Below, in pieces: positions 3,008-64,000 of a stretch of DNA of 64,000 bases. Position 1 is the stretch's first letter. Every line of letters begins with the position of its first letter. Source of the stretch: Clostridiales bacterium UBA5448 (GTDB taxonomy: Bacteria; Bacillota; Clostridia; Oscillospirales; SIG627); assembly GCA_002427425.1 (NCBI GenBank), contig DIRA01000025.1:921-64920 (forward strand), read 5' to 3'. The notes under the pieces were generated by a model. That model was not told where the DNA came from, made no database searches, and worked only from the letters and a program-made list of their open reading frames with translations. Made by a program: the position numbers and the translations under genes.

Positions 3008-3858
3008 AGGAAGCCATATTCGGACCGGCGGGAAATGCAGAGGAGTTCTATGCAGACGGGAATAAGTCCTCCTATCAGGCACCTGCCTGGCTGGCTGCCT
3101 ACGGTCTGAATGCGTATGAGTACCAATGCGGCAAAGGGGTATTGATCTCGGAAGCCATGTGCAAAACCATTGGGGAAGAAGCTAAAAAACATGAAATTAC
3201 CCTGTCCCTCCATGCGCCCTATTTCATTTCCTTATCCAGTGTTGAGCCGGAAAAACGCAGGAAAAGTGTGCACTATATTCTCCAAAGTCTTCGGGCAGCC
3301 CATGCTATGGGCGCCACGTTGATTGTGGTACATACAGGTAGCGCCGGTAAAATACCCAGAGAAAAAGCTATGAAATTGGCGGCGGATACGATATATCTTG
3401 CTTTAAACGCATCGGCAAAAGAAGGATTTTCCCCCATCACCATCGGACTGGAAACCATGGGCAAAATCAATCAATTGGGTACGCTGAACGAAGTGCTTCA
3501 ATTGTGTCAAATCGACACGTCCCTTCGTCCCGTGGTGGATTTCGGTCATTTGAATGCTAGAGGTTTGGGTGCCATCAAAACCGAAGAAGACTATGAAAAG
3601 ATTTTTGACACCATTGCAACCACACTTTCCGCTGAACAGGCGCAAAAGCTTCATGTGCATTTTTCTAAAATTGAATATTCTAAAGGCGGCGAATCCAAGC
3701 ACCTCACCTTTGAAAGCGACCTTTTCGGTCCCTCGCCGGAACAGTTTTCCGCTGTTATCGCGCGCCATCAACTTACGCCTACCGTCATATGTGAATCGGC
3801 AGGAACCATGGCAAAAGACGCCAAATACCTGCAAAACATATACAGGAGTCTACTATGA
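3004..3858 (+). CDS. Xylose-isomerase-like TIM barrel / AP endonuclease family 2 protein (endonuclease IV-like)
   Basis: LSLHAPYFISL, LIVVHTGS, DFGHLNA and VHFSKIEY match the metal-ligand pattern of Nfo-like TIM barrels. 4-nt overlaps with both neighbouring genes. Confidence 0.55.
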   Translation: MKEAIFGPAGNAEEFYADGNKSSYQAPAWLAAYGLNAYEYQCGKGVLISEAMCKTIGEEAKKHEITLSLHAPYFISLSSVEPEKRRKSVHYILQSLRAAHAMGATLIVVHTGSAGKIPREKAMKLAADTIYLALNASAKEGFSPITIGLETMGKINQLGTLNEVLQLCQIDTSLRPVVDFGHLNARGLGAIKTEEDYEKIFDTIATTLSAEQAQKLHVHFSKIEYSKGGESKHLTFESDLFGPSPEQFSAVIARHQLTPTVICESAGTMAKDAKYLQNIYRSLL

Positions 3859-5615: not shown

Positions 5616-5945
5616 ATGAGTATGACCATTGGTGAAAAAGTAGCCCATCTGAAAGGTCTTATGGAAGGATTAAACATTGGTGAAGCTACACCTGAAGCAA
5701 AAACTCTTGCCAAAATCGCTGATATCTTAGAAGACATGGCCCTTGCAATCGAAGATTTGGATGATGAATGTGCTTCTCTGAACGAATATCTTGAACAGAT
5801 CGATGAAGATCTTGGTAGAGCGGAAGAAGAAATTTACGGCGATTGGGAAGACGATTGCTGTGACTGTGATGATGAATGTGATGATGAATGCTGCTGCGAT
5901 TGTGGCTGCGAAGATGATTCCGACATCGTCGAAGAAGAGAAGTAA
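5616..5945 (+). CDS. CD1247 N-terminal domain-like protein with a Cys/Asp/Glu-only C-terminal tail
   Basis: Helical acidic N-terminal part (GEKVAHLKGLMEGL..ILEDMALAIEDLDDE) as in the efp-linked CD1247 family. AAGGAGGA RBS; the start may be ATG 5622. Confidence 0.6.
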   Translation: MSMTIGEKVAHLKGLMEGLNIGEATPEAKTLAKIADILEDMALAIEDLDDECASLNEYLEQIDEDLGRAEEEIYGDWEDDCCDCDDECDDECCCDCGCEDDSDIVEEEK

Positions 5946-5960
5946 GAATTATCAGCCTAT

Positions 5961-6000
5961 AAAAAAACGACCATTTTTTAAATGGTCATTTTTTTATTTT
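5961..6000. terminator. Bidirectional rho-independent terminator
   Basis: A-run, stem GACCATTT (5969-5976) / AAATGGTC (5980-5987), then T-run. It lies between convergent genes. Confidence 0.65.
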
Positions 6001-6643
6001 ACTGCTTCTTTGCGCCATACTCAATCATCGCCTGATATAATTTCAAGTTGTCATTGTATGTGCTTTTGCTTGGTACATTTCGAATACAGATTAACGTCGA
6101 GCCGGGCAAGGCATTGAATCCGTCTGTTTGAGAAACATTCAAATCTTTCAGACGAATGGCACAATCGTCATATGCGTTGTCAGGAACATATCCCAACGTA
6201 TCTTCAAAAGGAACCACTTTATTAGTTTCACGCAAAATGTTATATAAGAACCCATCAACCAAAAGTATGATTGAATCCCCTGCTGCAATTTCCAATTGAA
6301 AACGCTCCATGGTTTCAGCATGTTTGGCAGCATTCAATGCCTCATTGCTTGCATACATTTCGGTGGGTGCCAATTGAAGTGAGATGAAATTCATGGCCAA
6401 TTGCCCGTCCCCATTATAATCATCGATCAATGAAAATACAGTTGTTTCCATTTCCTCTATTTCCGTTTTGCTGATCAAGTCATAGCCTGCGTACATCAGA
6501 TGTACATCCGGTTCCACTTTATTGAACAATTGAACGGTACAAATGATGATAACCATCAAAATAAATCCGACAACCAAGGTGACTGTCTTGTAATGATACC
6601 AATAATTATCCAGCCATTGGCGGAAAGTCATTTTTTCCGGCAT
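5999..6643 (-). CDS. Hypothetical membrane-anchored protein
   Basis: 214 aa with a single N-terminal TM (VTLVVGFILMVIIICTV), then a soluble domain. No family recognised. Confidence 0.55.
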   Translation of the reverse strand: MPEKMTFRQWLDNYWYHYKTVTLVVGFILMVIIICTVQLFNKVEPDVHLMYAGYDLISKTEIEEMETTVFSLIDDYNGDGQLAMNFISLQLAPTEMYASNEALNAAKHAETMERFQLEIAAGDSIILLVDGFLYNILRETNKVVPFEDTLGYVPDNAYDDCAIRLKDLNVSQTDGFNALPGSTLICIRNVPSKSTYNDNLKLYQAMIEYGAKKQ

Positions 6644-6656
6644 ATCATTCCCCTAC

Positions 6657-8198
<1,542 letters not shown>

Positions 8199-51105: not shown

Positions 51106-52179
51106 TTATGCCGTTGTACTACAGGAGCCATCTCGAGCTTTCACTCCATGATTAGATGCCGATTGGCAACCCATGCTTTTCTTATTGTCAGACCCTTGGT
51201 TTCCTTCGTTATTACAATCTTTGTCAGAGTCATTTTTACCGTTGTTTGCTTTACCGTTGGATCCTTTGTTGGAAGCATTGTTTTCGTTGTTTGCTTTACC
51301 GTTGGATCCTTTGTTTGAGTTATCGTTGCCGTTATTTGCTTTACCGTTGGATCCTTTGTTTGCATCAAAGCCTTCGTTTGTTTCAGAATCGGAATCATCC
51401 TCTTTGGGATTTTGTTCTCGATTCTGTTTTTCTTCCCCTTTATTTCTTGCTTGCTCCCTATTTTGTTTGGTTTGAGCCATAATATCTTTGACAGATTTAT
51501 TGAGCCATTCATTGATATCAATGCTTTCAGGATCATCAGCGCTTGCTTTTAATTTTTCAACCAAATTCAGTTTTCCCGGTGTTACTCCCAATTCTCTTGC
51601 TTGTTCAACTCTTTTTTTACCAATCGCTTCCGCATTGATAGATGCTTTACAATTGTTTTGTTCGCATGATTCGTTGGCTGTTTCCTCCAGATTCTCCGCC
51701 AATTCTTGGGCTTTTTCCATATCATCACCTGACGTTGATATGACAATTCCTGCCCCATCGGCATCCAGATAGCCTTTGCGTGCAATTTCATCGACCGTGG
51801 ACGAAATAGCATTCTGAATGTTTTTATGCTTCAGATTGTCAAGTTCTATTTCATCAATAATTTCTGAACCATCGTCATTCACACCGGTTGCCGAAAGAAC
51901 TCTGTCAAACATATTAACAGCGTATTCGATGGAAGGGTTAACATCGAGACTTACATAAGTAGTCGGTGTATAATAGGCCGCTACGCCACCACTGATTAAC
52001 AATACCAAACAAGCTGCCGCAGCAAAAGATGCTAACTTTTTAAAATTGAATTGCTTTTTCATACTCATTTTAACCTCCTGCCCTAATTCGTAGTTTTGGT
52101 TTTTTACCTTAACGATGCAACCGTCATCAGAAAGCAAAACAGCCGTATTGCCGCGAATTTCTACGATAACCGCTTTCAT
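51106..52179 (-). CDS. Anti-sigma-I factor RsgI-like protein with low-complexity C-terminal tail
   Basis: RsgI N-terminal domain (MKAVIVEIRGNTAVLLSDDGCIVKVKN), one TM, and an extracellular SLDVNPSIEYAVNMFDRVLSATGVNDDG module. The tail is Asn/Gly/Lys/Asp-rich with three 15-aa repeats. Confidence 0.75.
   Translation of the reverse strand: MKAVIVEIRGNTAVLLSDDGCIVKVKNQNYELGQEVKMSMKKQFNFKKLASFAAAACLVLLISGGVAAYYTPTTYVSLDVNPSIEYAVNMFDRVLSATGVNDDGSEIIDEIELDNLKHKNIQNAISSTVDEIARKGYLDADGAGIVISTSGDDMEKAQELAENLEETANESCEQNNCKASINAEAIGKKRVEQARELGVTPGKLNLVEKLKASADDPESIDINEWLNKSVKDIMAQTKQNREQARNKGEEKQNREQNPKEDDSDSETNEGFDANKGSNGKANNGNDNSNKGSNGKANNENNASNKGSNGKANNGKNDSDKDCNNEGNQGSDNKKSMGCQSASNHGVKARDGSCSTTA
51245..51360. 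repeat. 45-bp coding tandem repeat (about 2.6 copies)
   Basis: TTTGCTTTACCGTTGGATCCTTTGTT recurs at 51245, 51290 and 51335. It encodes NKGSNGKANN(G/E)(N/K)(D/N)(N/A/D)S units on the minus strand. Confidence 0.85.
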
Positions 52180-52180
52180 A

Positions 52181-52897
52181 TTACTTTTCTTCCTTTCTAA
52201 TGAATGTTACATATTCGGCTAAAAAGGGATACTCTCCGGACAGTATCTCTATCGCCGCTATTATATATCTACGATGATGTTCGATTAATTTTCTGGGTAG
52301 GCCCGTTTTTTTTTGAATTTTTTTTATCGGCATTTGTTTTGCTTCCTTCATTATCCGCATTATTTCTTGGTTTTCAAGGATATGTAATATAACTTTTTTG
52401 CATGCTTCCTTTGTTTTTTTGGATTTAGGAGAACAGGAAGCAAGATCGTAAAATGTAAATCCATATTCATTGATAACAGGAGTAATGGCTTCAATTTCAT
52501 CTCGAATAGAATGATTGTCTTGATATATCAATTGTTTCGCTACCGAAATTTTAATGGCTATATCAGCTTCCTCTTCATTGGATTCACATTCAAATAGACT
52601 TGGATCGACAAGGTATTCCGGCTTGTACTTTTGTTCCGATCTGTAATAGTCAATCAGCCTGTTTTTTATGATGGTTTGGGCATAATGCAAAAAGCCTCCT
52701 TTGCTTTTCGCATACGTCTTGACGGCATCTGAAAAAGCAATCAATGCAATGGACCACTCATCATCATTTTTAGATATATATTTTTTTGATGTTTTTGAGG
52801 CAGATCTCAAAATAAACTGGCTTTGGCTTTCAATCAATTCTGAAAGCAAATGATTGTCATTCGCCGCATGTAAAGCTAACTCATCAATATATTCCAA
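52181..52897 (-). CDS. sigI: RNA polymerase sigma factor SigI-like
   Basis: 238 aa; region 2 (DDEWSIALIAFSDAVKTY..FLHYAQTIIKNRLIDYYR) and a C-terminal HTH (IQKKTGLPRKLIEHHRRYI). 1-nt gap to the anti-sigma gene. TTG start. Confidence 0.8.
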   Translation of the reverse strand: MEYIDELALHAANDNHLLSELIESQSQFILRSASKTSKKYISKNDDEWSIALIAFSDAVKTYAKSKGGFLHYAQTIIKNRLIDYYRSEQKYKPEYLVDPSLFECESNEEEADIAIKISVAKQLIYQDNHSIRDEIEAITPVINEYGFTFYDLASCSPKSKKTKEACKKVILHILENQEIMRIMKEAKQMPIKKIQKKTGLPRKLIEHHRRYIIAAIEILSGEYPFLAEYVTFIRKEEK

Positions 52898-53159: not shown

Positions 53160-53468
53160 CTATCTCAAATAAACACGACCTCTCTCTTTTGCCGCACCCA
53201 TGCCAATCAGCAAAATATCCACTGTCCACCAATAAACGAGGAATGAAAGGCTGAACAAAAATAGAATAACAAAGTTTGGCGCCATTGTCTCAAGCGCAGT
53301 TCCGATTGCGGAAAACATGGATATTGTCCAACAAGTCAGCAACAGCTTCAAAAAACCTCGAAGCCAATATTTCATAACAAAGCGATCCGCCCCACACCAT
53401 CCAAAAAAACCGAAAGCAGAAAAACGGTTTTCCTTTTTTTCGATCCCTTTGAAAGCGGCTGGTAGCAT
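53160..53468 (-). CDS. TM2 domain-like membrane protein (possibly the 3' part of a frameshifted gene)
   Basis: FSAFGFFGWCGADRFVMKYWLRGFLKLLL resembles the TM2 domain. It overlaps the next ORF in another frame across a homopolymer run. Confidence 0.5.
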   Translation of the reverse strand: MLPAAFKGIEKKENRFSAFGFFGWCGADRFVMKYWLRGFLKLLLTCWTISMFSAIGTALETMAPNFVILFLFSLSFLVYWWTVDILLIGMGAAKERGRVYLR

Positions 53469-53627: not shown

Positions 53628-53810
53628 TTACCAACTCCAGTAAGGTTGGCCGCCTACATTTACAATCTGCGAGAGCGCCACGGCAACGATCTGTTCGCCC
53701 GTGCCGGTAATGCCGTAGAGCACCGCCGTCCAAAGTGAGTTGTTCTCATCGGCAAGAAGCTCCGCAAGCTGCTCCCGCTGGTCTGCGTTGAAGCCGTACT
53801 GCTTTAACAT
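53628..53810 (-). pseudogene. Internal fragment of a conjugative-element cell wall hydrolase (NlpC/P60- or CHAP-type, Tn916 Orf14-like)
   Basis: MLKQYGFNADQREQLAELLADENNSLWTAVLYGI..IVAVALSQIVNVGGQPYWSW*. As I recall, this matches the linker and the first strand of the hydrolase domain in ICE-encoded hydrolases. It is cut off on both sides by stops. Confidence 0.55.
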
Positions 53811-54033: not shown

Positions 54034-54072
54034 GGGGGCTATCGCAAAATGAAAAATTTTGCGACAGCCCCC
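54034..54072. terminator. Strong hairpin, possible bidirectional terminator
   Basis: GGGGGCTATCGCAAAAT / ATTTTGCGACAGCCCCC (one mismatch). T-rich flank on the minus strand (CTTTTGTCGTTT). Confidence 0.5.
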
Positions 54073-54094: not shown

Positions 54095-54127
54095 GAAAAA
54101 ACCGCGTAAACACTGGGTATACGCGGG
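54095..54127 (-). terminator. Rho-independent terminator of the defence operon
   Basis: On the minus strand: CCGCGTA-loop-TACGCGG followed by TTTTTT. It is the first such structure after the last ORF. Confidence 0.6.
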
Positions 54128-54225
54128 AATTTTCTGGCAAATGCTGATAATTTTGATACAGGGTGCAGTTTTTCGGCGGAAAAGTTCTGCGCGGGTATAA
54201 ATCGTTCTGCGCAAGTATAACGGAT

Positions 54226-54771
54226 TTATTCTATAACACTATATTTCTGGAATAAATTGCTAAAGAACTGCTTCAAGTTGTTGAGCACTTTTTGCTTTGC
54301 ATCTCCACCATCGCTTGTTCCAATAAACTCATATCCGCCAAATCTGTAAACGTCATAACCACATAGGCTCATTTCACGGTGTACTTTTACCATTTCACTA
54401 TAGAGCTTAGGAGAAGCCCTATCACCGTCAGCATAATGCTGTTTTCCATCGATTTCTATAACAACTCTATTTCTATGTGAAATAATCATCAGAAAATCCA
54501 TCTTCTGATGCTCAAATAGTTTATAGCCACGCTCTTTTTGAGTTTGTGGATCATAATAAAGATAAACCTGTGGTATTAGCGCAGGTAAATCTACACCCAA
54601 TTCGCCTTTCAATTCATAGTAAGCCTGTAATAGCCATGTTTCAGGACCGCTTTTCTCACCGTTTGCTTTAAAACTTGTATCTAAGCAGTCACATAACCTG
54701 CTAATGAACGCATTTTCTTGATTACTATCTATTGCATTTTCTGAAGCATACCATTCTACTAAATTATCCAA
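54226..54771 (-). CDS. DUF559/Vsr-like (PD-(D/E)xK-fold) protein coupled to mcrC
   Basis: ..KMDFLMIISHRNRVVIEIDGKQHY..REMSLCGYDVYRFGGYEF follows the DF..(n)..E.DG..H..(n)..GY.V.RF pattern of DUF559/Vsr-like endonuclease domains. The TTG start directly abuts the mcrC stop. Confidence 0.55.
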   Translation of the reverse strand: MDNLVEWYASENAIDSNQENAFISRLCDCLDTSFKANGEKSGPETWLLQAYYELKGELGVDLPALIPQVYLYYDPQTQKERGYKLFEHQKMDFLMIISHRNRVVIEIDGKQHYADGDRASPKLYSEMVKVHREMSLCGYDVYRFGGYEFIGTSDGGDAKQKVLNNLKQFFSNLFQKYSVIE

Positions 54772-55836
54772 TTACACGACTACGGCGCTGAAGTGTTCTT
54801 CTGCTATGGCATTGAGTTGTACTGCAATGCTCTTAAAATCACAGCTCAGATCCAGTGTTTTGACACTAATCTTATTTCCACTCATTTGGTAAACGCCATC
54901 AGGTTGTATTGTTTCGTCTGTTCGCGCATATAAGAGCATTCCAGAGACCTCATGCGGTTTATCGCCAAACTGTGTGTCCTTGTTTTTTACATAGGTAAAA
55001 ATTTGATACAGATTGTTTGAATGCAAAGTATGTGCATCAAATTGAACCTGCGTGGTGTGCGTGTAATACTTCGCGTCTATGATGAGAACCTTCTCTCCGT
55101 GCGCCAGAGTAATGTCGCTTTGCATAACGGGCAGCATCGTTCCGACCCCGTCATCCAGCGCCCACGGAATTTGCGACGCGCTTACATTCAGCATTGGATA
55201 CTCTTTGATGTAGTATTCGAGTATGAATTTCTCGTACAGGCGGCTCATTCTTTGCTCATCTACGAACGACGCCAATTTGTGCTCACCTTGCTCCGTGGTC
55301 AGGAGCATACCCTCAATGATGAACTGGCACAGGCTTATCAACATCCGATAGGTCTGATTGTTGCGCTGAAAGCGGATGGCCGACCACTTTATGCTCGTAA
55401 GGTCGATGGTGTCCACATTGGCAAAAAACAGCATCCTTTTCTTGAGCTCGTCTTTATATTCGGCTTTTACATCCTTTTGACGCAACAGTAGCATGACGGT
55501 TGTTTTCAGGATCTGGTTAAGAAAGTTGTTCTCGGACAGCTCATCATACTCGCAGGTCAGCACACGCTCTCTGGCGATCCTATTTTTGATAGTTCCGGGC
55601 ATATCAATTTTTCCGCGAACCACCGCAAGCTCTTCGGTGCGGTTTAGATATTCGCGGTAGATACCCTGCTTTAACTGCTGCCCTATACCTTTGGAAAGGA
55701 TAGCCGCAAAGAGGTCGTGCATATTATCAAACTCTTCTGTAGCCACTTCCTCAAAATTCGACTGGTTCAGCGTCGTAAAAGCGTAAGACAGCATATAGTA
55801 AATATTTTTTATGAATATGCTCTTATCCTTTATCAT
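54772..55836 (-). CDS. mcrC: McrBC restriction system nuclease subunit McrC
   Basis: Typical N-terminus (IKNIYYMLSYAF..FEEV..F.NMHDLFA..L) and C-terminal PD-(D/E)xK (VLIIDAKYY). Start ATG 55836 overlaps the mcrB stop (ATGA). Confidence 0.85.
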   Translation of the reverse strand: MIKDKSIFIKNIYYMLSYAFTTLNQSNFEEVATEEFDNMHDLFAAILSKGIGQQLKQGIYREYLNRTEELAVVRGKIDMPGTIKNRIARERVLTCEYDELSENNFLNQILKTTVMLLLRQKDVKAEYKDELKKRMLFFANVDTIDLTSIKWSAIRFQRNNQTYRMLISLCQFIIEGMLLTTEQGEHKLASFVDEQRMSRLYEKFILEYYIKEYPMLNVSASQIPWALDDGVGTMLPVMQSDITLAHGEKVLIIDAKYYTHTTQVQFDAHTLHSNNLYQIFTYVKNKDTQFGDKPHEVSGMLLYARTDETIQPDGVYQMSGNKISVKTLDLSCDFKSIAVQLNAIAEEHFSAVVV

Positions 55837-58229
55837 TGGAACACACCATGCAGGATGTTCTCCCATCTTTGGAGCTTGGCACTGTCATCAAACCAATACT
55901 CACTCAGCATGGGGAGTATGTCATAATCTACGATAGAGCGCAGCCATTCGTCGGTACAGGCCGTTTGACCACAGAAATAGCTGTGACCAATGCAGAATCC
56001 CTTTCCCAGCGATCTGTCAAGAGTTATCTCCTTGTTGAGTTCAATAATCTTTGCAATCAGCTCGTTTAGTGTTTCGTTATTCAGGGATTTCTGGTATTTC
56101 ATAAAGCCTTCCGAGTCAAATCCGGGTTCAACCTCGAAGAAGCTAAAACGGCGACGCAGAGCGTAATCTATCATCGCAAGGCTACGGTCGGCGGTGTTCA
56201 TCATGCCGATATTATACAAGTTTTTGGGGACAGAAAACGAGAGCCCGTTGTATGCCAATGTCGCCTTTGTACCTCGATAGTCACGCTCTATCAGCATGAG
56301 TAACTCTCCGAATATCTTGCTCATATTGCCGCGATTGATTTCGTCGATAATAAAGAAATAATCCTTATCCGGCTGGTTTGCGGCCTTTTGGCAGAAACGG
56401 TAGAATATTCCTGATTTTAGTTCAAATCCGTCATTTACAGGCTTGTACCCCATCATAAAGTCCTCATAGGAGTAGTTTTGATGGAACTGTACAAATTCAA
56501 TCCGGCTCTCATCCTTTTCGCCCATGATGGAATACGCAAGGCGTTTAGCAGCAAATGTTTTTCCAACACCCGGAGCGCCCTGCAGGATGATGTTTTTCTT
56601 GTTCTGCAGGACGGAAACCAGCATATCATATCGGCTCTCACTCATATACACTTCGTCAAGGAAATCCGCTTTGCCATACTTTTCTGCGGAGTCTTCGGTG
56701 GAAACGGGGTTTTCATCACGGATAATGTCGATTATAAAATCGTATTCGCCCTTTGTCAGCTTGAATAAGCTGCCTTGCGGATTGCTGAAATATTCCATCC
56801 GTTCAAGCTCGGAGCAGCTTTTAAGCGTCAGGTAATCAATCGGCGAAGTGAGTCCTTCGACCTTTTCAAAGAAGATTTTTTCACCGTCCTGCTCGGCGCT
56901 TATCCTGCCGATAGCCACAATCTGTTTAACAGGGTTGGACTCATAACCGATTATCATATCTCCGGCTTTTGCATCCAAGAAATTCTGGAATATTCTACGC
57001 TTATTTCCGTTGTCGTTGTAAAGCGTGTACGATTGAACTTCACCAACTGCGATGTCTGCGAAGCTCCAGATTTTCGGATTGGCATTCAACCACCAGTAAC
57101 CGTGCTCCTCTTCACCGGGAGCAGATGCCACATAAAGTTCCACCTGACTGAGGTCAACTTTATCAAGCGCGGCGGAGAGCTCATCGCGCAACTTCCATGT
57201 ATAACTGCCATCATCTTCTTTTCCTGCATTGCGACCGAGATACAGAATAGGCCACCAGCGTGAGCTTTCGGTGTCACGTTCCATTACGGGGCAGCCCGTT
57301 TTCTCCGCTACACGCCGCGCCAATGACGAGGATCCGCTATTGTAGAAGTTTTTCGTTTCGCCGTATTTGATTGCAAGCTGGGTGCAGGTGGCCTGCCCGC
57401 CATAGTCTTTCATTCGCTTCATGATTTCGAGACTGCCGGTAGTAAACACTTCGGAGTCTCCGAGAAGCTGTATCCACTCATCTGTAGAGATTTCAGGCGA
57501 ATAATCCGCCGGGAACCAATCCTCGGTATTTGCCGGTTCTTTATCCTTCTGTGAGAAATAGCGGCTGATATAAAAGCCAACATCAATCGTAAGTGTCCTC
57601 AGTTCAGGATCAGGATAACAGGAGTCCGTCAATTGGGATTTAAGTAGACCTGTGAGACTATTGTCGTTTTTGAGTTCCTCGCACATATCATCGTACAGAG
57701 CATAAAAATTCCGTAGATTATCTGTGTAGGCACCCTTTTTGAAACGATAGTCACTGCCAAGCTCATCAGCGACGGCTTTAACTTCGCCGTATTTGTAAAT
57801 GTAATATTTGTCGGGAAAGCGCAGCCAAAGATAAGTGCTGACGGCATTTTCATACTGATAATGCTGTCCCGCACCATTCCCGTACTTTTCAAGCAATAAA
57901 GAGGATTTGTCTTTAAACTCAAGGATTCTGGTAACGACGTCGTTGCTCTCATCAAACAAGGCGATAAACATTGCCCGCACTTCTTCAGGGGCTGTCTTTG
58001 CAAAGCCCTCGATCATCTTTGCCGGGAAGTTATTCATGGACGCAAGCAGGTTATATGTCTTTGACAGGGAGCGGGTTAGCATACCGGCAAAATCCGTCGC
58101 ATTCACATCCCAGTTATCTTGGAAAACCTTTACTGCTTCCCATTTGTATTGTTCGTTTCCCCACTGTGTAGAAACAAAATCCTGCTTGTACTTTGCGAGT
58201 GCTTCCTGCAAACGGAATTTGTCAAACAT
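55833..58229 (-). CDS. mcrB: McrB-family GTPase with extended N-terminus including an EVE/PUA-like domain
   Basis: The C-terminal AAA+ has LQGAPGVGKTF, FHQNYSYEDF, FFIIDEINRGNMSKIFGEL. Residues ~370-500 (YWWLNANPKIWSF..GDMIIGYES.P.KQIVAIG..) look like an EVE domain. About 360 further N-terminal residues are unassigned. Confidence 0.85.
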   Translation of the reverse strand: MFDKFRLQEALAKYKQDFVSTQWGNEQYKWEAVKVFQDNWDVNATDFAGMLTRSLSKTYNLLASMNNFPAKMIEGFAKTAPEEVRAMFIALFDESNDVVTRILEFKDKSSLLLEKYGNGAGQHYQYENAVSTYLWLRFPDKYYIYKYGEVKAVADELGSDYRFKKGAYTDNLRNFYALYDDMCEELKNDNSLTGLLKSQLTDSCYPDPELRTLTIDVGFYISRYFSQKDKEPANTEDWFPADYSPEISTDEWIQLLGDSEVFTTGSLEIMKRMKDYGGQATCTQLAIKYGETKNFYNSGSSSLARRVAEKTGCPVMERDTESSRWWPILYLGRNAGKEDDGSYTWKLRDELSAALDKVDLSQVELYVASAPGEEEHGYWWLNANPKIWSFADIAVGEVQSYTLYNDNGNKRRIFQNFLDAKAGDMIIGYESNPVKQIVAIGRISAEQDGEKIFFEKVEGLTSPIDYLTLKSCSELERMEYFSNPQGSLFKLTKGEYDFIIDIIRDENPVSTEDSAEKYGKADFLDEVYMSESRYDMLVSVLQNKKNIILQGAPGVGKTFAAKRLAYSIMGEKDESRIEFVQFHQNYSYEDFMMGYKPVNDGFELKSGIFYRFCQKAANQPDKDYFFIIDEINRGNMSKIFGELLMLIERDYRGTKATLAYNGLSFSVPKNLYNIGMMNTADRSLAMIDYALRRRFSFFEVEPGFDSEGFMKYQKSLNNETLNELIAKIIELNKEITLDRSLGKGFCIGHSYFCGQTACTDEWLRSIVDYDILPMLSEYWFDDSAKLQRWENILHGVFQ

Positions 58230-58240
58230 GGTATCCCTCC

Positions 58241-61207
58241 TTATGCATTGCGCAGGCTCTTGTATATTTCATCAGTGAAATTTCCAAGCACCTGTCGCTT
58301 TATCTCGTTGCTGCTGAGAAGCAGAGAGAAGAAGTCCTGATTTTGTGATAGCCCTTCGATAAGGGCATCGTCTATATCGTCAAAATAAGAGAATTCAAAA
58401 TCTTTGACGGTGTTATTTTTCGCGCTTGTTTTCAGCTTTTCAGATTTCAACAGTAAGTCCCTGATCTGAAGCATGGCTTTGACCGCCACATCGTTATCAT
58501 AGGATTTTCCTGTCCGGCTGTTGATTTCCGCTATGATTTGGGACAGGCGCTCCTCCTTGGCTTCCGTCAAGCCGAAGCTTTCGGCGGTGGCGAGCTTTAC
58601 AACCGGCGAAGCGACCAGTTTGGGGTTTGCGACCTCATCGCCCTTTTTCTGCACAAAATTTGTAGCTTTGATTTTTCCATCAAGGTTATATCCGCCGCCC
58701 GGATGCTTAATATTGATGTATGCAAGCAGATAAGTCATAAAGTTGTATTTCTTATGCAAATCCACATCTTCAAAGCAGGACACCTGCAGCATGAACTCAT
58801 AGAAGCGCACGAAATGGCGCATCAGGGCAACAATTTCCTGCTGCTTCGCTATGTCATAATTTTCAATGAGGTTCTTTGCCTTTTTGAAATAGAATGTCAG
58901 TTTCTGCTTATCCTTGGATGAAATTTTGTCCTTGTAGAGCAGCTCGTTGGCTTTTTCAATATCGTCCGGGTCAAGAACGGTATATGCGTCGGTTTTTGCC
59001 TCAAGGTCATAAATAGCAGTCGGGGTGACGGAATTTGCAAGGAGTGTCGTTGTATAATACGGAGCGAACGCGTCCTGAATATCCTTGTAGTCATTCACAA
59101 AATCCAGCACAAAGGTCTTTTTCTCAAATGGCGGGCAAATACGGTTCAGGCGCGACAGCGTTTGCACTGCCGATACGCCTTTTAGCTTTTTCAGCACATA
59201 CATGGCGCACAGCTTTGGCTGGTCGAAGCCTGTCTGATACTTATTGGCAACCAGAAGAACCTGATAATCGTCGGTGTCAAAAGCCTTTGTCAGCTTGTCC
59301 TCGGAGAAGCCGTTCATGGAGGCTTCGGTGTATTCCGTGTCATCGTCCGGGAGCTTTACTTTGCCCGAAAAGGCTACAAGAGCGCGAATGTCGGAGTATC
59401 CCTTTTTCGTAATATAGTCCTCAAATGCTTGACGGTACTTTACTGCGCCCTGCCGGGATGCAGTGATGACCATAGCCTTTGCCATACCGCCCAGCTCTGT
59501 CATAACAGAGGTGCGGAAGTGCTCGACAATTACCTCTATCCGCTGCGCGATATTTGTTTCGTGCAGTTCCACGAAACGGGCAATTTGCCGTTTGGCATCC
59601 GTTGTCTTGCAGCGGGGATCGTCTTCAATTTCCTTATTTATCTGATAGAAGGTCTCATAGCGGGTGTAGTTTTGCAGCACATCCAGAATGAAGCCTTCTT
59701 CGATTGCCTGTTTCATGGAGTAAACATGGAAAGCAGCACGCTGTCCCTTTGTGTTCAGACGCCCGAATAGCTGAATCGTTGTTGGCTTCGGCGTGGCAGT
59801 AAACGCGAACATGGATACATTCGCTTGCTTGCCGTTGCGTTTGATTTCGTCAGTGATCATGTCCTCAACATCGGCAATATCCTGATCACCGGCTCCGAGG
59901 GACTGCGTAACAGCGGCCATATCTTTTCCGGCAGTGGAGGAGTGCGCCTCGTCAATGATTACGGCAAAGCGCTTATTCTTCAATCCAGCGACATTGTCCA
60001 CGATATACGGGAACTTTTGAATCGTGGTAGCAATGATTTTTGTATTGCCGTTCAGGGCAATTGCCAAGTCCGCCGAATTGCACTTATCATCCATAACGCG
60101 GATGAGCCCCGCCTTGTGCTCCATACCCATAATGGCTTGTTGAAGCTGGCGGTCAACCACCACGCGGTCAGTGACGATGATAATGTTGTCAAAGATGATT
60201 CTGTTGTCGGCATCGTGCAGCGATGTCAGCCGGTGCGCCAACCATGCGATGGAGTTCGTTTTGCCGGAACCGGCGCTGTGCTGAATCAGGTAATTTTGCG
60301 CTGTGCGATTTTCTTCTACATCCGCCAGCAGTTTACGAATGACATCGAGCTGGTGATAGCGCGGGAAAATAAGGTTCTCCGACTTTTTGATTTTGCCGGT
60401 AACCTCGTCCTCTTTTTCCTTCGTTTCGATAAAAATGAATTTGCTGATAAGGTCGAGAACGGTGTCCTTCGTCAGAATATCCTCCCACATATAAGACACG
60501 CTGTATTTGTCCTTAAAGGTGGGATTGCCCGCTCCGGCATTGACGCCTTCGCCGTTGCCGATATTAAACGGCAGGAAAAAAGTAGAATTGCCGTTTAGCT
60601 TTGTGGTCATATAGACCTCTTCCAAGTCCATCGCAAAATTCACCAGACAGCCCGCTTTGAAAAGGAATAGGCGGGTCTTCGGATTGCGATCAACGCGGAA
60701 CTGATAAATGGCATCCTGATAGGACTGACCGGCGGCGTTACACTTAAGTTCAAAGCTCATGATGGCAAGCCCGTTCAGGAAAATCACGAGGTCGATGCAC
60801 TCTTCGTCGCTTGCCCAAACCTCCTCCATAACAGAGAAGATGTTTTTATTGTATTTCTCCAGCAGCTCCTTGTTAAAGGTCGTTGCCGGCTTGGTGTACA
60901 TCAGCTCCAGCTTCATGCTGGAGATCTCAATGCCGTGTTTCAACACATCAAGCAGACTGCCGCGAGCTTTCGTTTCCTCGGCGTTGATAAAGCTGACGAT
61001 GGTGTCTTCCAAATCGTCCTTGTATATTTTGCGGAGGGCAGCCATCGCTTCGGGCTGCGTGTCGTTGAGAAAGCGGAACAGCAGCTCACGGTCTACGGCA
61101 AAAAAGCGGTCATAGCTGGTGGCTTTGCGGATGGTATAGCCGTTGTCCTGCTCCAACCGTTCCATGATGAAATGCTGATATTCTTTTTCAGATAGAATGT
61201 CATTCAT
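58241..61207 (-). CDS. hsdR: Type I restriction endonuclease subunit R
   Basis: N-terminal nuclease domain, SF2 helicase motifs (HSAGSGKTNS, VIIDEAHSS, FTATP, QTGFDQP), long helical C-terminus. 988 aa. Confidence 0.9.
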   Translation of the reverse strand: MNDILSEKEYQHFIMERLEQDNGYTIRKATSYDRFFAVDRELLFRFLNDTQPEAMAALRKIYKDDLEDTIVSFINAEETKARGSLLDVLKHGIEISSMKLELMYTKPATTFNKELLEKYNKNIFSVMEEVWASDEECIDLVIFLNGLAIMSFELKCNAAGQSYQDAIYQFRVDRNPKTRLFLFKAGCLVNFAMDLEEVYMTTKLNGNSTFFLPFNIGNGEGVNAGAGNPTFKDKYSVSYMWEDILTKDTVLDLISKFIFIETKEKEDEVTGKIKKSENLIFPRYHQLDVIRKLLADVEENRTAQNYLIQHSAGSGKTNSIAWLAHRLTSLHDADNRIIFDNIIIVTDRVVVDRQLQQAIMGMEHKAGLIRVMDDKCNSADLAIALNGNTKIIATTIQKFPYIVDNVAGLKNKRFAVIIDEAHSSTAGKDMAAVTQSLGAGDQDIADVEDMITDEIKRNGKQANVSMFAFTATPKPTTIQLFGRLNTKGQRAAFHVYSMKQAIEEGFILDVLQNYTRYETFYQINKEIEDDPRCKTTDAKRQIARFVELHETNIAQRIEVIVEHFRTSVMTELGGMAKAMVITASRQGAVKYRQAFEDYITKKGYSDIRALVAFSGKVKLPDDDTEYTEASMNGFSEDKLTKAFDTDDYQVLLVANKYQTGFDQPKLCAMYVLKKLKGVSAVQTLSRLNRICPPFEKKTFVLDFVNDYKDIQDAFAPYYTTTLLANSVTPTAIYDLEAKTDAYTVLDPDDIEKANELLYKDKISSKDKQKLTFYFKKAKNLIENYDIAKQQEIVALMRHFVRFYEFMLQVSCFEDVDLHKKYNFMTYLLAYINIKHPGGGYNLDGKIKATNFVQKKGDEVANPKLVASPVVKLATAESFGLTEAKEERLSQIIAEINSRTGKSYDNDVAVKAMLQIRDLLLKSEKLKTSAKNNTVKDFEFSYFDDIDDALIEGLSQNQDFFSLLLSSNEIKRQVLGNFTDEIYKSLRNA

Positions 61208-62472
61208 GAAATCGGCACCTCCTTTTTCCCTGTGACATACTCAAAGATGAGTGATTTTTTATATTCGTCAAGTGTTGCAAGCTGCGACTGCTTGTCCGAG
61301 ATTACAGCATTGATCTCGTTGGACTTTTTATCAAGATAATCGGCAATTTCATTCTGCTCATCAACAGGCGGATAAGGGACATATGTGTTACCAAAATCCG
61401 CAAACGCAATATTTTTACCATCTCTAAGCGTCATTGTATACGAATTCATCTTTTCAATAAATCCGCTTTCCTTAAAGAGATACTTGTAATACCCATCTGC
61501 GATTTCAACAATTGCATGGAAGACCTGATAAGCAGGTGAAACGACACCTTCATATTCGGAATATTCAAAACCACCTTGAAAACTTCTGAGGCTAATGCAA
61601 TAGTCGCCTTTATGAATTGTTTTCAGGAGTGCCAAATCAGCTTTTTCATTCAATTTAACTGCGCTCATACCAGACAGCTCTTCATATTGAGCTTGTGGGA
61701 TAACTCCATATTTTTGAGTAGGAGAGAGTAACTGCAATTCTATATAATTTCCTCGTTGATTTCGTTGCACAAATAGGTACTTTCCTTTTTGTGTATTCCA
61801 AGAAGTAGGAATCTTTCCAATCCATTCTATCCCGCTGTCCTTCATATCAGTATCGGGGTTCAGCCCCTTCGTGACTGCTTCTGTAATAACGGAACGCTTA
61901 TACTGCTCCAGCGTATCAATTTGCGATTGAATATCAGCGGTCAGCGCATCAATCTCGTCGCATTTTTTATTGAGAAATGCAGATATGTCTTGCTGTTCTG
62001 TCAATGGCGGCACAACTGTAGGAACGGCTCCAAGCTGATCTTCTGTAAGTGAATGTCTTAGATTCTTAGCCAAATGCAAAAGAGTTTTGTCCATATCGAG
62101 CATTGTATAATAATAGCAATAGTATGATGCATCTGTATTTGCTGTTAATACGAACTGACTGTATGCAGGACTTGTTACTCCTTCCTTCTTAATTAAGCCC
62201 ACACATCGGGGGGTAACATCAATGTCAAACAAGCACATTAAAAGGTTCCCGGCGCATATGCGCTGATAACCATCAAAGGAAGTTGGCATTTTCCCTCCGG
62301 CATCTAAATCTCTAACAATAACCCCCTTCATTGTTAGGGACAGAATGTCTTCGCCATTATAAATCGGGCAAATTTCTTTTACCTTATGCATAAGGTATTT
62401 GTTAGGCATAACTTCCCAGTTTGCTGGTATGCTCTTTACCCACTCAATTCCGCTATCTTTCATCTCACGCAT
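61204..62472 (-). CDS. hsdS: Type I restriction-modification specificity subunit S
   Basis: Two target-recognition domains, each preceded by MKDSGIEW(V/I)..IP..W and followed by conserved coiled-coil repeats (QIDTLEQYKRSVITEAVTKG / QLATLDEYKKSLIFEYVTGK). Confidence 0.9.
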   Translation of the reverse strand: MREMKDSGIEWVKSIPANWEVMPNKYLMHKVKEICPIYNGEDILSLTMKGVIVRDLDAGGKMPTSFDGYQRICAGNLLMCLFDIDVTPRCVGLIKKEGVTSPAYSQFVLTANTDASYYCYYYTMLDMDKTLLHLAKNLRHSLTEDQLGAVPTVVPPLTEQQDISAFLNKKCDEIDALTADIQSQIDTLEQYKRSVITEAVTKGLNPDTDMKDSGIEWIGKIPTSWNTQKGKYLFVQRNQRGNYIELQLLSPTQKYGVIPQAQYEELSGMSAVKLNEKADLALLKTIHKGDYCISLRSFQGGFEYSEYEGVVSPAYQVFHAIVEIADGYYKYLFKESGFIEKMNSYTMTLRDGKNIAFADFGNTYVPYPPVDEQNEIADYLDKKSNEINAVISDKQSQLATLDEYKKSLIFEYVTGKKEVPIS

Positions 62473-62851
62473 CAGCGGGCACCTCCGTTTGGGGCTTCTT
62501 TTTGTGGCTACGGATGAAAAGCGTCACTGCCGCCACGATTCCGGCAACTGCCGCGACTCCACCCAGAATGCACAACACCATAACCCAGTTTGCAGTAAGC
62601 CATTTAACAGCAACAATCACGCCATAGGTGACTGCCCACAGTGCGATAAACAGCACAGCACGAATCAGCCAGTGCATGAAGGTGCCGCTTGTCCTACCGC
62701 CAATGGCACCGCTGCGATACAGATCGCCCACACAACTGTACGCGATACTGACAGCCACAGCTCCGATGACCGTCAAAATCAAATACTCCCAATACCACTC
62801 AATGGGCAATCCAAGAGGGTCTGTCAGTATGCCAAATAAAAATTTGAACAT
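62465..62851 (-). CDS. Uncharacterised 128-aa four-TM membrane protein embedded between hsdM and hsdS
   Basis: AAGGGGGA RBS 7 nt before ATG 62851. Four hydrophobic helices and a basic C-terminal tail (RSHKKKPQTE). Its stop overlaps the hsdS start by 8 nt. Confidence 0.7.
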   Translation of the reverse strand: MFKFLFGILTDPLGLPIEWYWEYLILTVIGAVAVSIAYSCVGDLYRSGAIGGRTSGTFMHWLIRAVLFIALWAVTYGVIVAVKWLTANWVMVLCILGGVAAVAGIVAAVTLFIRSHKKKPQTEVPADA

Positions 62852-62866
62852 TCATTTTCCCCCTTG

Positions 62867-64000
62867 TTATTCAAATAGTTTCGCCACACGCTCGCTGACC
62901 GAAAGCTCCAGCTCTGTAAAACGGGCTTCCAACTCCTCGCTGGGCGTGGGTTGTTGATATTTGTAGAAATAGCGTGTGAATGGGATCTCTGCACCGGTCT
63001 TGATGACCGGCTTTTTTGCGCCGAGATTTTCCTCAAAGAACGCAGCAGCGTCAGGGATATGAGGCAGCACCTCTCGCGCCATATAGGTGTCGATATCTTC
63101 TTCAAATTTGACGATTTCGGTGTCCTTCGTCTCCTTGTCGTAGATGATATTGCCCTTTTTGTCGTGCTGTACCTTGGCGCTTTTATCCATAGCGGACAGC
63201 CCGTCGGCGATCTTGTCGATGAGCTTTTTGTCGGCGGTCGCACCAGCAAGCGCTTTTGTCAATACCGGCAGAAACTCTTTGTCCGTAAGATAGACTTTTT
63301 CGGATATAGCCGCTTCCAAAGCGGCGACCACGGCGTCAAACACCGGCTTATTGTTCTGATAATTTTCCAGCTTCTTTGCGTCCTTGCCGGTGAGCTCCTC
63401 GGCATTTTCAAGTTCCTCAACCTTTGCCTCATCGTAGAGCGAGAAGAGGGAGCCTTTTGAGAGCATGGCCTGAATGCGCTCCTCCGTGATGGCATAGCTG
63501 CGCTGGAGGGGCTGCATTACCGCATATTCACGGTAAATGAACTCCTCATTCATATAGATTTTACAAACCTCGTTTTCTTCAAAATCTGCATACAGCTTCG
63601 TAATGGTGCTGCGGTCTTCCGGGGCAATTTCGTTTTTCTTGTTGCCCAGTGCCTTGCGGAGTTTGTGGTATATCTGCGAAGCGTCGATGAGCTGAATCTT
63701 GCCTTTGCGCTCGGCGCGTTTATTCTTAGAAAGTACCCAGATATAGGTGGCAATTCCGGTGTTGTAGAACAGGTCTGTCGGCATGGCAATGATCGCTTCA
63801 ATCAAATCGCTTTCCAGCAGCCAGCGACGGATCTGGCTCTCACCGGACGCCGTGCCGCCGGAGAACAGCGGACTGCCATTCTCAATGATGGCGCAGCGAC
63901 CTAAATTGTCATCCAGCTTGTTAATAGCGGACTGCAAAAACAGCATCTGCATATCGCCGGAACCGGGCAGCCCGGCACCCCAACGACCGTCAGAGCCTTT
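62867..64000 (-). CDS. hsdM: Type I restriction-modification N6-adenine DNA methyltransferase subunit M (partial, 5' end off-window)
   Basis: The frame is open to the window edge. It has the post-catalytic HsdM region (GSPLFSGGTASGESQIRRWLLE.DLIEAIIAMP..LFYNTGIATYIWVL) and a long helical C-terminal extension. Confidence 0.9.
   Translation of the reverse strand, partial: KGSDGRWGAGLPGSGDMQMLFLQSAINKLDDNLGRCAIIENGSPLFSGGTASGESQIRRWLLESDLIEAIIAMPTDLFYNTGIATYIWVLSKNKRAERKGKIQLIDASQIYHKLRKALGNKKNEIAPEDRSTITKLYADFEENEVCKIYMNEEFIYREYAVMQPLQRSYAITEERIQAMLSKGSLFSLYDEAKVEELENAEELTGKDAKKLENYQNNKPVFDAVVAALEAAISEKVYLTDKEFLPVLTKALAGATADKKLIDKIADGLSAMDKSAKVQHDKKGNIIYDKETKDTEIVKFEEDIDTYMAREVLPHIPDAAAFFEENLGAKKPVIKTGAEIPFTRYFYKYQQPTPSEELEARFTELELSVSERVAKLFE

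Follow-up and report, generated by a model that had tools for sequence, protein, structure and literature searches.

McrBC systems of the E. coli type are often linked to Type I restriction-modification (R-M) systems in apparent single operons (Bell et al. 2024, eLife, PMC11090510). In the five-gene operon of Vibrio cholerae VPI-2, Type I R-M is combined with an embedded Type IV system, TgvAB; this operon is experimentally active, and its authors described complementary cover of modified and unmodified phages (PMC11411939). Here we describe a locus in which hsdM, hsdS and hsdR of a Type I system stand together with mcrB and mcrC, at positions 54226–64000 of a 64,000-nt stretch of contig DIRA01000025.1 from Clostridiales bacterium UBA5448 (the whole stretch is called the window). 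The region probably represents the 3'-terminal 9.8 kb of a composite restriction operon, hsdM-mem128-hsdS-hsdR-mcrB-mcrC, which is horizontally mobile and expressed, as we infer, from a single promoter. Its conserved core consists of the five genes hsdM-hsdS-hsdR-mcrB-mcrC, to which one accessory, mem128, is added in this genome.

The locus resembles the operons of Bell et al. 2024 (PMC11090510) in its E. coli-type McrB GTPase and McrC, co-directional behind Type I genes and with the potential of a single operon. That account gives the linkage one sentence and defers details; added here are the M-S-R-B-C order, the 11–20-nt junction between hsdR and mcrB, hsdR scars and accessory slots, and the reader part of McrB is N-terminal helical plus winged-helix-like plus EVE, replacing the E. 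coli DUF3578-type domain. The immigration control region of E. coli K-12 also has Type I and then McrBC on the same strand with mcrB and mcrC overlapping, but its order is R-M-S, its McrB carries another DNA-reading domain, and spacings of 200, 228 and 162 nt separate its co-directional genes (hsdR-hsdMS-symE/symR-mcrBC), symE/symR lying between the units; these gaps confirm the original prediction made for this DNA in its description of K-12 hsdRMS and mcrBC as neighbouring, separate units. The VPI-2 operon (PMC11411939) likewise holds a modification-dependent and a Type I system in one operon; its Type IV part, related to GmrSD, is placed among the hsd genes, whereas here McrBC follows hsdR. 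The novelty implied by the original prediction was overstated, since both Type I–McrBC operons (PMC11090510) and an embedded Type IV system (PMC11411939) had already been described. New relative to these are the conserved junction with its scars, the slot architecture, the mem128 family and the landing in a resident defence gene. The block is a clean, intact example of a widespread gut-Bacillota cassette pairing modification-blocked with modification-dependent restriction, and introduces no new principle. Its genes, in the direction of transcription, are the following.

62867–64000, minus strand: hsdM, C-terminal 376 codons (Pfam N6_Mtase, E=5e-27; PADLOC MTase_I, E=3e-114).
62465–62851, minus strand: mem128, small membrane protein with about three transmembrane segments (evidence from homologue family, slot and selection).
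61204–62472, minus strand: hsdS, specificity subunit with two target-recognition domains (PADLOC Specificity_I; Pfam Methylase_S).
58241–61207, minus strand: hsdR, restriction/translocase subunit (Pfam HSDR_N, ResIII, SWI2_SNF2, T1R_D3-like; TIGR00348).
58230–58240, minus strand: hsdR-mcrB spacer GGAGGGATACC with Shine-Dalgarno (SD) sequence (direct reading).
55833–58229, minus strand: mcrB (Pfam EVE, AAA_5; NCBIfam McrB).
54772–55836, minus strand: mcrC, nuclease subunit of 354 amino acids (aa) from the ATGA start (NCBIfam PRK09736; Pfam McrBC).
54226–54771, minus strand: orf181, putative 5'-truncated remnant of a resident AbiJ_NTD3 plus DUF559-like gene (alignment to the homologue P0002).

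Seven co-directional minus-strand open reading frames (ORFs) are present in 54226–64000 according to the ORF list of the window, and their junctions, read base by base, are 4–8-nt overlaps or 0–15-nt spacers. The hsdM TAA (62867–62869) is followed by 15 nt, CAAGGGGGAAAATGA, containing AAGGGGGA, and then by the ATG of mem128; mem128 runs 8 nt into hsdS (ATGCGTGA); hsdS and hsdR share an ATGA (61204–61207); the 11 nt of GGAGGGATACC separate the hsdR TAA from the mcrB ATG (58229); mcrB and mcrC overlap as ATGA (55833–55836). The TTG of orf181 (54771) abuts the mcrC TAA with 0 nt between, and the two ORFs share one reading frame with this single TAA (54771–54774 area) in between. Every junction of the near-gapless series that had been predicted was confirmed in this way. 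The prediction of a seven-gene unit failed: the comparisons below identify orf181 as a probable remnant of a neighbouring gene and mem128 as an optional accessory, so that of the two unassigned proteins placed inside the block mem128 stays, in this accessory role, and orf181 is removed from the cassette.

The gene identities proposed earlier (hsdM, hsdS, hsdR, EVE-mcrB, mcrC) were upheld by Pfam, PADLOC and NCBIfam profiles, and catalytic motifs are intact in the Type I and McrBC proteins (motif check). The sequence holds an HsdM methyltransferase, an HsdS with two target-recognition domains and an HsdR with nuclease and superfamily 2 helicase motifs. The full hsdM gene encodes 700 aa and starts outside the window; the full product with HsdM_N is found on the same contig (L084; L numbers denote loci of the comparison). 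In L084 the NPPF motif and the motif-I-like QACGTGG are seen, both outside the window, and the pattern D.[AG].G.G matches as DQACGTG at residue 156 of the truncated L084 sequence. HsdS gives full-length matches to several PADLOC Specificity_I models (residues 2–419, E=3e-72 to 2e-85), and HsdR matches TIGR00348 of NCBIfam (E=4e-56) and contains GSGKT, DEAH, TAT and D134..ELK.

The Type IV part comprises an McrB AAA+ GTPase with an EVE reader domain and an McrC nuclease. McrB is laid out as a helical N-terminal domain (aa 1–225), a winged-helix-like domain (aa 245–357), EVE (aa 378–501; Pfam 26.7 bits, cutoff 23) and an AAA+ GTPase (aa 513–798) with the motifs GAPGVGKT, DEINR and NTAD. The GTPase region matches NCBIfam PRK11331 (E=7e-93, residues 513–795); across the entire protein the score reaches 311.7 against an equivalog cutoff of 637, a shortfall due to the different N-terminal region. 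In the AlphaFold2 (AF2) model of aa 1–377 (predicted local distance difference test, pLDDT, 81), residues 1–225 are all-helical and residues 245–357 form helix and beta-hairpin. No match to the first 377 residues was found in Pfam, none to the N-terminus in PHROGs, and nothing meaningful in a PDB sequence search with residues 1–523; Foldseek with the model of the N-terminal part found nothing significant in PDB (winged-helix regulators reached E about 0.7, on the second subdomain only). Fusion of EVE N-terminal to the McrB GTPase is the commonest EVE defence architecture, abundant in Firmicutes and frequently with extra domains (Bell et al. 2020, PMC7641849); the present McrB shares this arrangement and differs in its 377 further N-terminal residues (helical and winged-helix-like) without Pfam or PDB match. 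McrC scores 398.7 bits with NCBIfam PRK09736 (equivalog cutoff 338) and E=8e-41 with Pfam McrBC; its D..IIDAK motif is present and its C-terminus is intact relative to relatives. An mcrC start at ATG 55866, where the frame is also open, was rejected: the model alignment begins at residue 12 and relatives' mcrC starts at the mcrB stop, and therefore the ATGA is the correct start.

In E. coli, mcrB also has a short product, McrB-S, from an internal start (annotated NC_000913; PMC12707154). The present McrB has an internal in-frame methionine, Met529 (56643–56645; motif EVYM(S/T)E), shortly before the AAA+ domain, kept in 29 of 31 alignable relatives and replaced by Ile in two.

For comparison, McrB proteins were scanned in one genome per species, giving 80 loci with McrB 66–94% identical. 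The seven window proteins were mapped onto these loci, junctions were read and hsdR 3' DNA was searched; for the 76 evaluable loci, those with enough upstream DNA, the result upstream of mcrB is the following.

19 of 76 loci: same HsdR family (81–89% identical), ending 11–20 nt before mcrB, SD in the spacer.
1 of 76 loci (L061): same hsdR intact, apart from mcrB.
1 of 76 loci (L007): same hsdR partial, gap of about 350 nt to mcrB.
11 of 76 loci: hsdR 3' scar only, 48–390 nt, ending 12–21 nt before mcrB.
At least 5 of 76 loci: different Type I HsdR family upstream of mcrB.

A present or past junction with this HsdR family is found in 32 of the 76 loci (42%). The layout of stop, 11–20 nt with SD, and ATG is kept in 19 species, also downstream of hsdR scars, one of which (L027) has an in-frame stop. 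HsdR is 81–89% identical to that of the 19 other species, and cassette hosts are Lachnospiraceae, Oscillospiraceae, Erysipelotrichaceae and one Spirochaetales metagenome-assembled genome. Pairwise distances of HsdR correlate with those of McrB (Mantel r=0.62, p=5e-4; McrB–McrC r=0.89). By the 19 tight junctions, the 11 scars and this correlated divergence, the Type I–McrBC junction is an old, inherited feature, ancestral to this large McrBC clade; the Type I half was lost repeatedly by deletions breaking inside hsdR.

The hsdS gene stands apart from its neighbours in two respects. It is 32–58% identical to hsdS of cassettes with 81–89% HsdR identity (66% over a partial match in L068), and its GC content at third codon positions (GC3) is 0.38 versus 0.61–0.64 in hsdM and hsdR; divergence and low GC3 would fit a swapped specificity gene or swapped recognition domains.

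Signals for separate expression of mcrBC were sought in the block. No minus-strand terminator with a good T-tract was found within 54226–64000, and promoter-like matches are at shuffle level (23 vs 16.9 +/- 3.9). The best match in the block, an internal mcrB promoter at 56759..56731 (11/12), was rejected as it is not kept in relatives. A promoter or regulatory element embedded in the hsdR 3' end was likewise rejected: over the last 30–80 codons synonymous-codon identity is 0.44–0.455, the same as the gene mean of 0.452 +/- 0.029 (standard deviation, 30-codon windows), and therefore no conserved signal is embedded there. The hsdR-mcrB junction has no conserved RNA structure, and a hairpin just before the hsdR stop (z-score -3.7 in the window) was set aside, being not conserved (consensus energy -0.23). 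The junction at which an independent promoter or terminator was to be looked for thus gave no sequence signal of separate expression. With co-directional genes, neither room nor signals for separate expression and a conserved arrangement, the locus has at sequence level the properties of single operons of the type described by Bell et al. 2024. The packing of Type I R-M and EVE-McrBC proposed earlier is upheld as one apparent operon, and co-transcription across hsdR-mcrB is suggested. Two minus-strand hairpins follow the block, together with a pair of repeats.

54184–54220, no strand assigned: two 17-nt direct repeats, GTTCTGCGC..GTATAA (flank of the resident gene).
54095–54127, minus strand: first intrinsic-terminator-like hairpin, followed by U6 (free energy, dG, -11.8 kcal/mol, z -5.0).
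54034–54072, minus strand: second, strong terminator hairpin, 17-bp stem, followed by UUUUGU (dG -31.7 kcal/mol, z -8.2).

The hairpin at 54095–54127, named earlier as the first convincing terminator, is real by its energy, z-score and U6, and a stronger one follows it (54072–54034).

The end of the cassette is read as a recombination junction. Homologues of orf181, mostly 290–317 aa long, begin with AbiJ_NTD3 or another N-terminal domain, continue with a middle segment of strong conservation and carry a DUF559-like core. The 181-aa ORF corresponds to residues ~118–298 of the 298-aa P0002 (92% identity), i.e. the 3' 60% of a gene of about 300 aa, and lacks the middle segment KNxIFAA..GLxW with its near-invariant G and W, so that the full architecture is absent. 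DNA homology to the intact gene starts within about ten bases past the mcrC TAA. The ORF was found downstream of mcrC in 0 of the 80 relatives, whose sequences differ from one another right past the mcrC stop. GC3 drops there from 0.55 (mcrC) to 0.30 (orf181), close to the 0.32 and 0.35 of the neighbouring sigma/RsgI genes. Because of this truncation, the absence from all 80 relatives, the GC3 drop and the start of homology at the mcrC stop, orf181 is best read as what is left of a resident gene that lost its 5' end to the arriving cassette, and not as a cassette member. The cassette ends at the mcrC stop, abutting the truncated 3' part of the resident AbiJ_NTD3 plus DUF559-like gene; the TAA-TTG abutment would be the recombination junction itself, and the terminators would belong to the resident gene. 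Given a TTG start codon without an SD, expression of orf181 is doubtful. The nuclease core of the ORF is intact (AF2 model pLDDT 87); best Foldseek matches are PD-(D/E)xK nucleases, weak at E >= 0.03; Pfam DUF559 scores 16.7 bits (cutoff 20.6), some homologues carry PF04480, and PHROGs gave no match.

Taken together, these data allow the other explanations to be weighed. That two independent systems came to lie side by side by chance in a defence island, with order and spacing meaningless, is scarcely credible: the tendency of defence genes to cluster, and the presence of this clade's McrBC behind other genes as well, would suit such a view, but synteny speaks against it, with the same family pair, order and tight junction in at least 19 other species, scars in 11 more, and correlated divergence of the two halves. 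Transcription of mcrBC from its own promoter inside the hsdR 3' part, the tight spacing reflecting cassette compaction only, is unlikely. It would agree with the separate units of E. coli K-12, with weak sigma-70-like minus-strand matches inside hsdR (e.g. 58524..58496 at 9/12) and with the 11 loci where McrBC persists behind 48–390 nt of hsdR and some upstream signal must drive it, but scars go down to 48–51 nt, too short for a conserved promoter at a fixed place, the hsdR 3' end is without excess synonymous conservation, promoter-like matches are at chance level, and the 11–20-nt spacing is conserved.

Genuine membership of orf181 as a seventh gene, for a DUF559/Vsr-like nuclease that assists McrBC and is made by TAA-TTG termination-reinitiation or as a readthrough fusion with McrC, is very unlikely. 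The same-frame abutment to mcrC, the intact core motifs with a confident AF2 model, the occurrence of the arrangement in more than one sample (L084, L085) and a 182-aa version, 87% identical, that closes another defence cluster (L087) have to be set against the absence after mcrC in 80 relatives, the GC3 step, the missing middle segment, the TTG without SD and the different breakpoint in L087; a McrC-DUF559 readthrough fusion was rejected, as among the matches listed no homologue exceeds 317 aa. The composite operon ending at mcrC remains the preferred explanation. Several points weigh against it: sequence data leave room for a weak or non-sigma-70 internal promoter; the operon 5' end and promoter lie outside the window; the HsdR–McrB correlation is only moderate (r=0.62), and the halves also recombine independently; about 39 of the 76 loci are without trace of any detected Type I HsdR, and McrBC evidently works alone there; and orf181, with its intact nuclease core and 92% identity to an intact homologue, may have residual function.

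In Type I systems HsdM2S1 methylates the host's own bipartite target sites (N6-adenine methylation) and HsdR2M2S1 translocates and cuts DNA without that mark; EVE-McrB GTPase rings activate the McrC PD-(D/E)xK nuclease on modified DNA. In the composite operon, transcription of all six genes from hsdM to mcrC would start at a single promoter that lies upstream of hsdM and beyond the window, translation would be coupled by the stop/start overlaps and the short spacers with SD, and the terminators of the resident gene would now end the cassette transcript. The McrB EVE domain would read modified bases, most likely modified cytosines, and would have to ignore HsdM methylation for self-compatibility. 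The two arms could then give a recipient cover against unmodified invaders and against those that evade Type I restriction by hypermodification of their DNA, with presumably complementary ranges. With this cassette one could examine whether it matters that both arms are co-expressed, what the McrB N-terminal domains read, and the role of mem128.

The small protein mem128 has no match in Pfam, NCBIfam, PADLOC or PHROGs. Its family comprises 238 homologue clusters of 126–132 aa, one member being listed in 2779 blocks of the assembly index. The protein shows about three hydrophobic stretches, ends in a basic tail and contains the motif LTDPLGLPIEWYWEY, which is invariant; dN/dS (ratio of nonsynonymous to synonymous substitution rates) is about 0.1, i.e. 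purifying selection. In every context read, it lies between the 700-aa hsdM and hsdS; a guest gene (TIR or 327-aa ORF) occurs after hsdS, and after hsdR either mcrB with a tight junction or a SIR2_2 gene past a gap of about 300 nt. Only three of the 80 McrB-related loci (L016, L018, L020) carry it, all complete cassettes. It is a real, selected small membrane protein, an optional accessory recurring only in the hsdM/hsdS slot. Rather unlikely is a role as dedicated small membrane subunit of this Type I family, tethering the complex (and, by way of the operon, the McrBC arm) at the membrane, the entry site of foreign DNA, or as a membrane-damaging abortive-infection effector released on Type I inhibition; if true, the block would be a functionally integrated three-layer system, beyond two co-expressed enzymes.

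The cassette has defined insertion slots, hsdM/hsdS and hsdS/hsdR. The latter is empty in the window and holds tightly packed 102–152-aa ORFs or a TIR protein in relatives: 120–133-aa proteins starting MKVEY/MKAEY, with overlapping stops and starts, in L003, L005, L016, L018, L021, L022, L024 and L041; a TIR protein in L020 and L089–L095; a 327-aa ORF in L096 and L097. The MKVEY/MKAEY proteins have no Pfam or PHROG match (133-aa member searched in PHROGs). In L094–L097 the order is hsdM-mem-hsdS-guest-hsdR, followed after about 300 nt by a 1015-aa SIR2_2 gene in place of mcrBC, and a 69-aa HTH_3 gene precedes hsdM. The position after hsdR thus appears to be an exchangeable partner slot. Such guests between hsd genes resemble the restriction-linked ORFs (rlo genes; RloF of Campylobacter jejuni, as cited in PMC11411939), the counterparts being mem128 here and the TIR, 102–152-aa and 327-aa ORFs in relatives; mem128 differs as a small membrane protein without a described family.

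Upstream of hsdM, 16 complete cassettes of relatives were evaluable (L003, L016, L018, L020, L021, L023, L024, L036, L049, L051, L068, L089–L093). Immediately before hsdM stands an AAA_13 ATPase gene (758 aa; Pfam E=6e-127) in 11 of them, itself preceded by an HTH_17 gene (66 aa) in 10 of these 11, the exception being L023 (partial AAA_13, contig start). AAA_13 (PF13166) is a family which we take to include PrrC/RloC-type anticodon nucleases linked to Type I loci.

Both the composition and the left flank had been cited for an acquired island. The GC content is 0.46 in the block, 0.40 in 36–54 kb and 0.447 in 1–36 kb; the block is GC-richer than the DNA to its immediate left, as predicted, but not richer than the entire window. 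In host ORFs of 250 aa or more, GC3 ranges over 0.42–0.58; hsdM (0.64) and hsdR (0.61) are the window's highest and the only two above this range, mcrB (0.53) and mcrC (0.55) are at its upper end, and the sharp GC3 step is at the mcrC/orf181 boundary. Acquisition is retained on other grounds: the compositional case is modest, and the comparative one, 81–89% HsdR identity across families, argues strongly and much better for horizontal transfer of the cassette.

The conjugative-element gene fragment said to border the block could be a 60-aa ORF (53628–53810) with 68% identity to the N-terminus of an annotated CHAP-domain protein, a match compatible with a hydrolase fragment and no proof of one. 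A 102-aa ORF (53160–53468) contains a TM2 domain, and 53.0–54.2 kb looks like decayed remnants. The flank ORFs of 60, 70 and 88 aa and the guest ORFs of relatives have no Pfam match; blastn of 52.9–54.2 kb against plasmids matched 175 nt only, in unannotated Subdoligranulum records; and no tRNA marking an integration site is present within the window. Further left are chromosomal genes: the sigma/RsgI pair, thiamine pyrophosphokinase and type IV pilus genes. The pair (sigma-70-family and RsgI-like anti-sigma, 51106–52897) has GC3 of 0.32 and 0.35 versus 0.42–0.58 in the rest of the window, and this AT-rich stretch, rather than the defence block, is the main compositional outlier.

The resident gene was also seen in other surroundings. 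In L087 the 182-aa copy (gene at about 5699–6776) lies behind a cluster of SNF2, another HsdR and a HamA fragment; in L088 (123–1276) the gene is split into two overlapping ORFs of 200 and 183 aa. Within defence islands it seems to serve repeatedly as a site of landing or breakage, and such cassettes settle by taking the place of the 5' part of resident defence genes. The window, L086 and L087 share the DNA that follows the gene; the 17-nt repeats just past the stop are present in two copies in the window and three in L086 (about 3203–3290). Other short repeats (CCTTTTAAT, AACGAT) stand directly after mcrC in relatives, and the short repeats after mcrC or after the AbiJ_NTD3/DUF559-like gene may be recombination or protein-binding sites.

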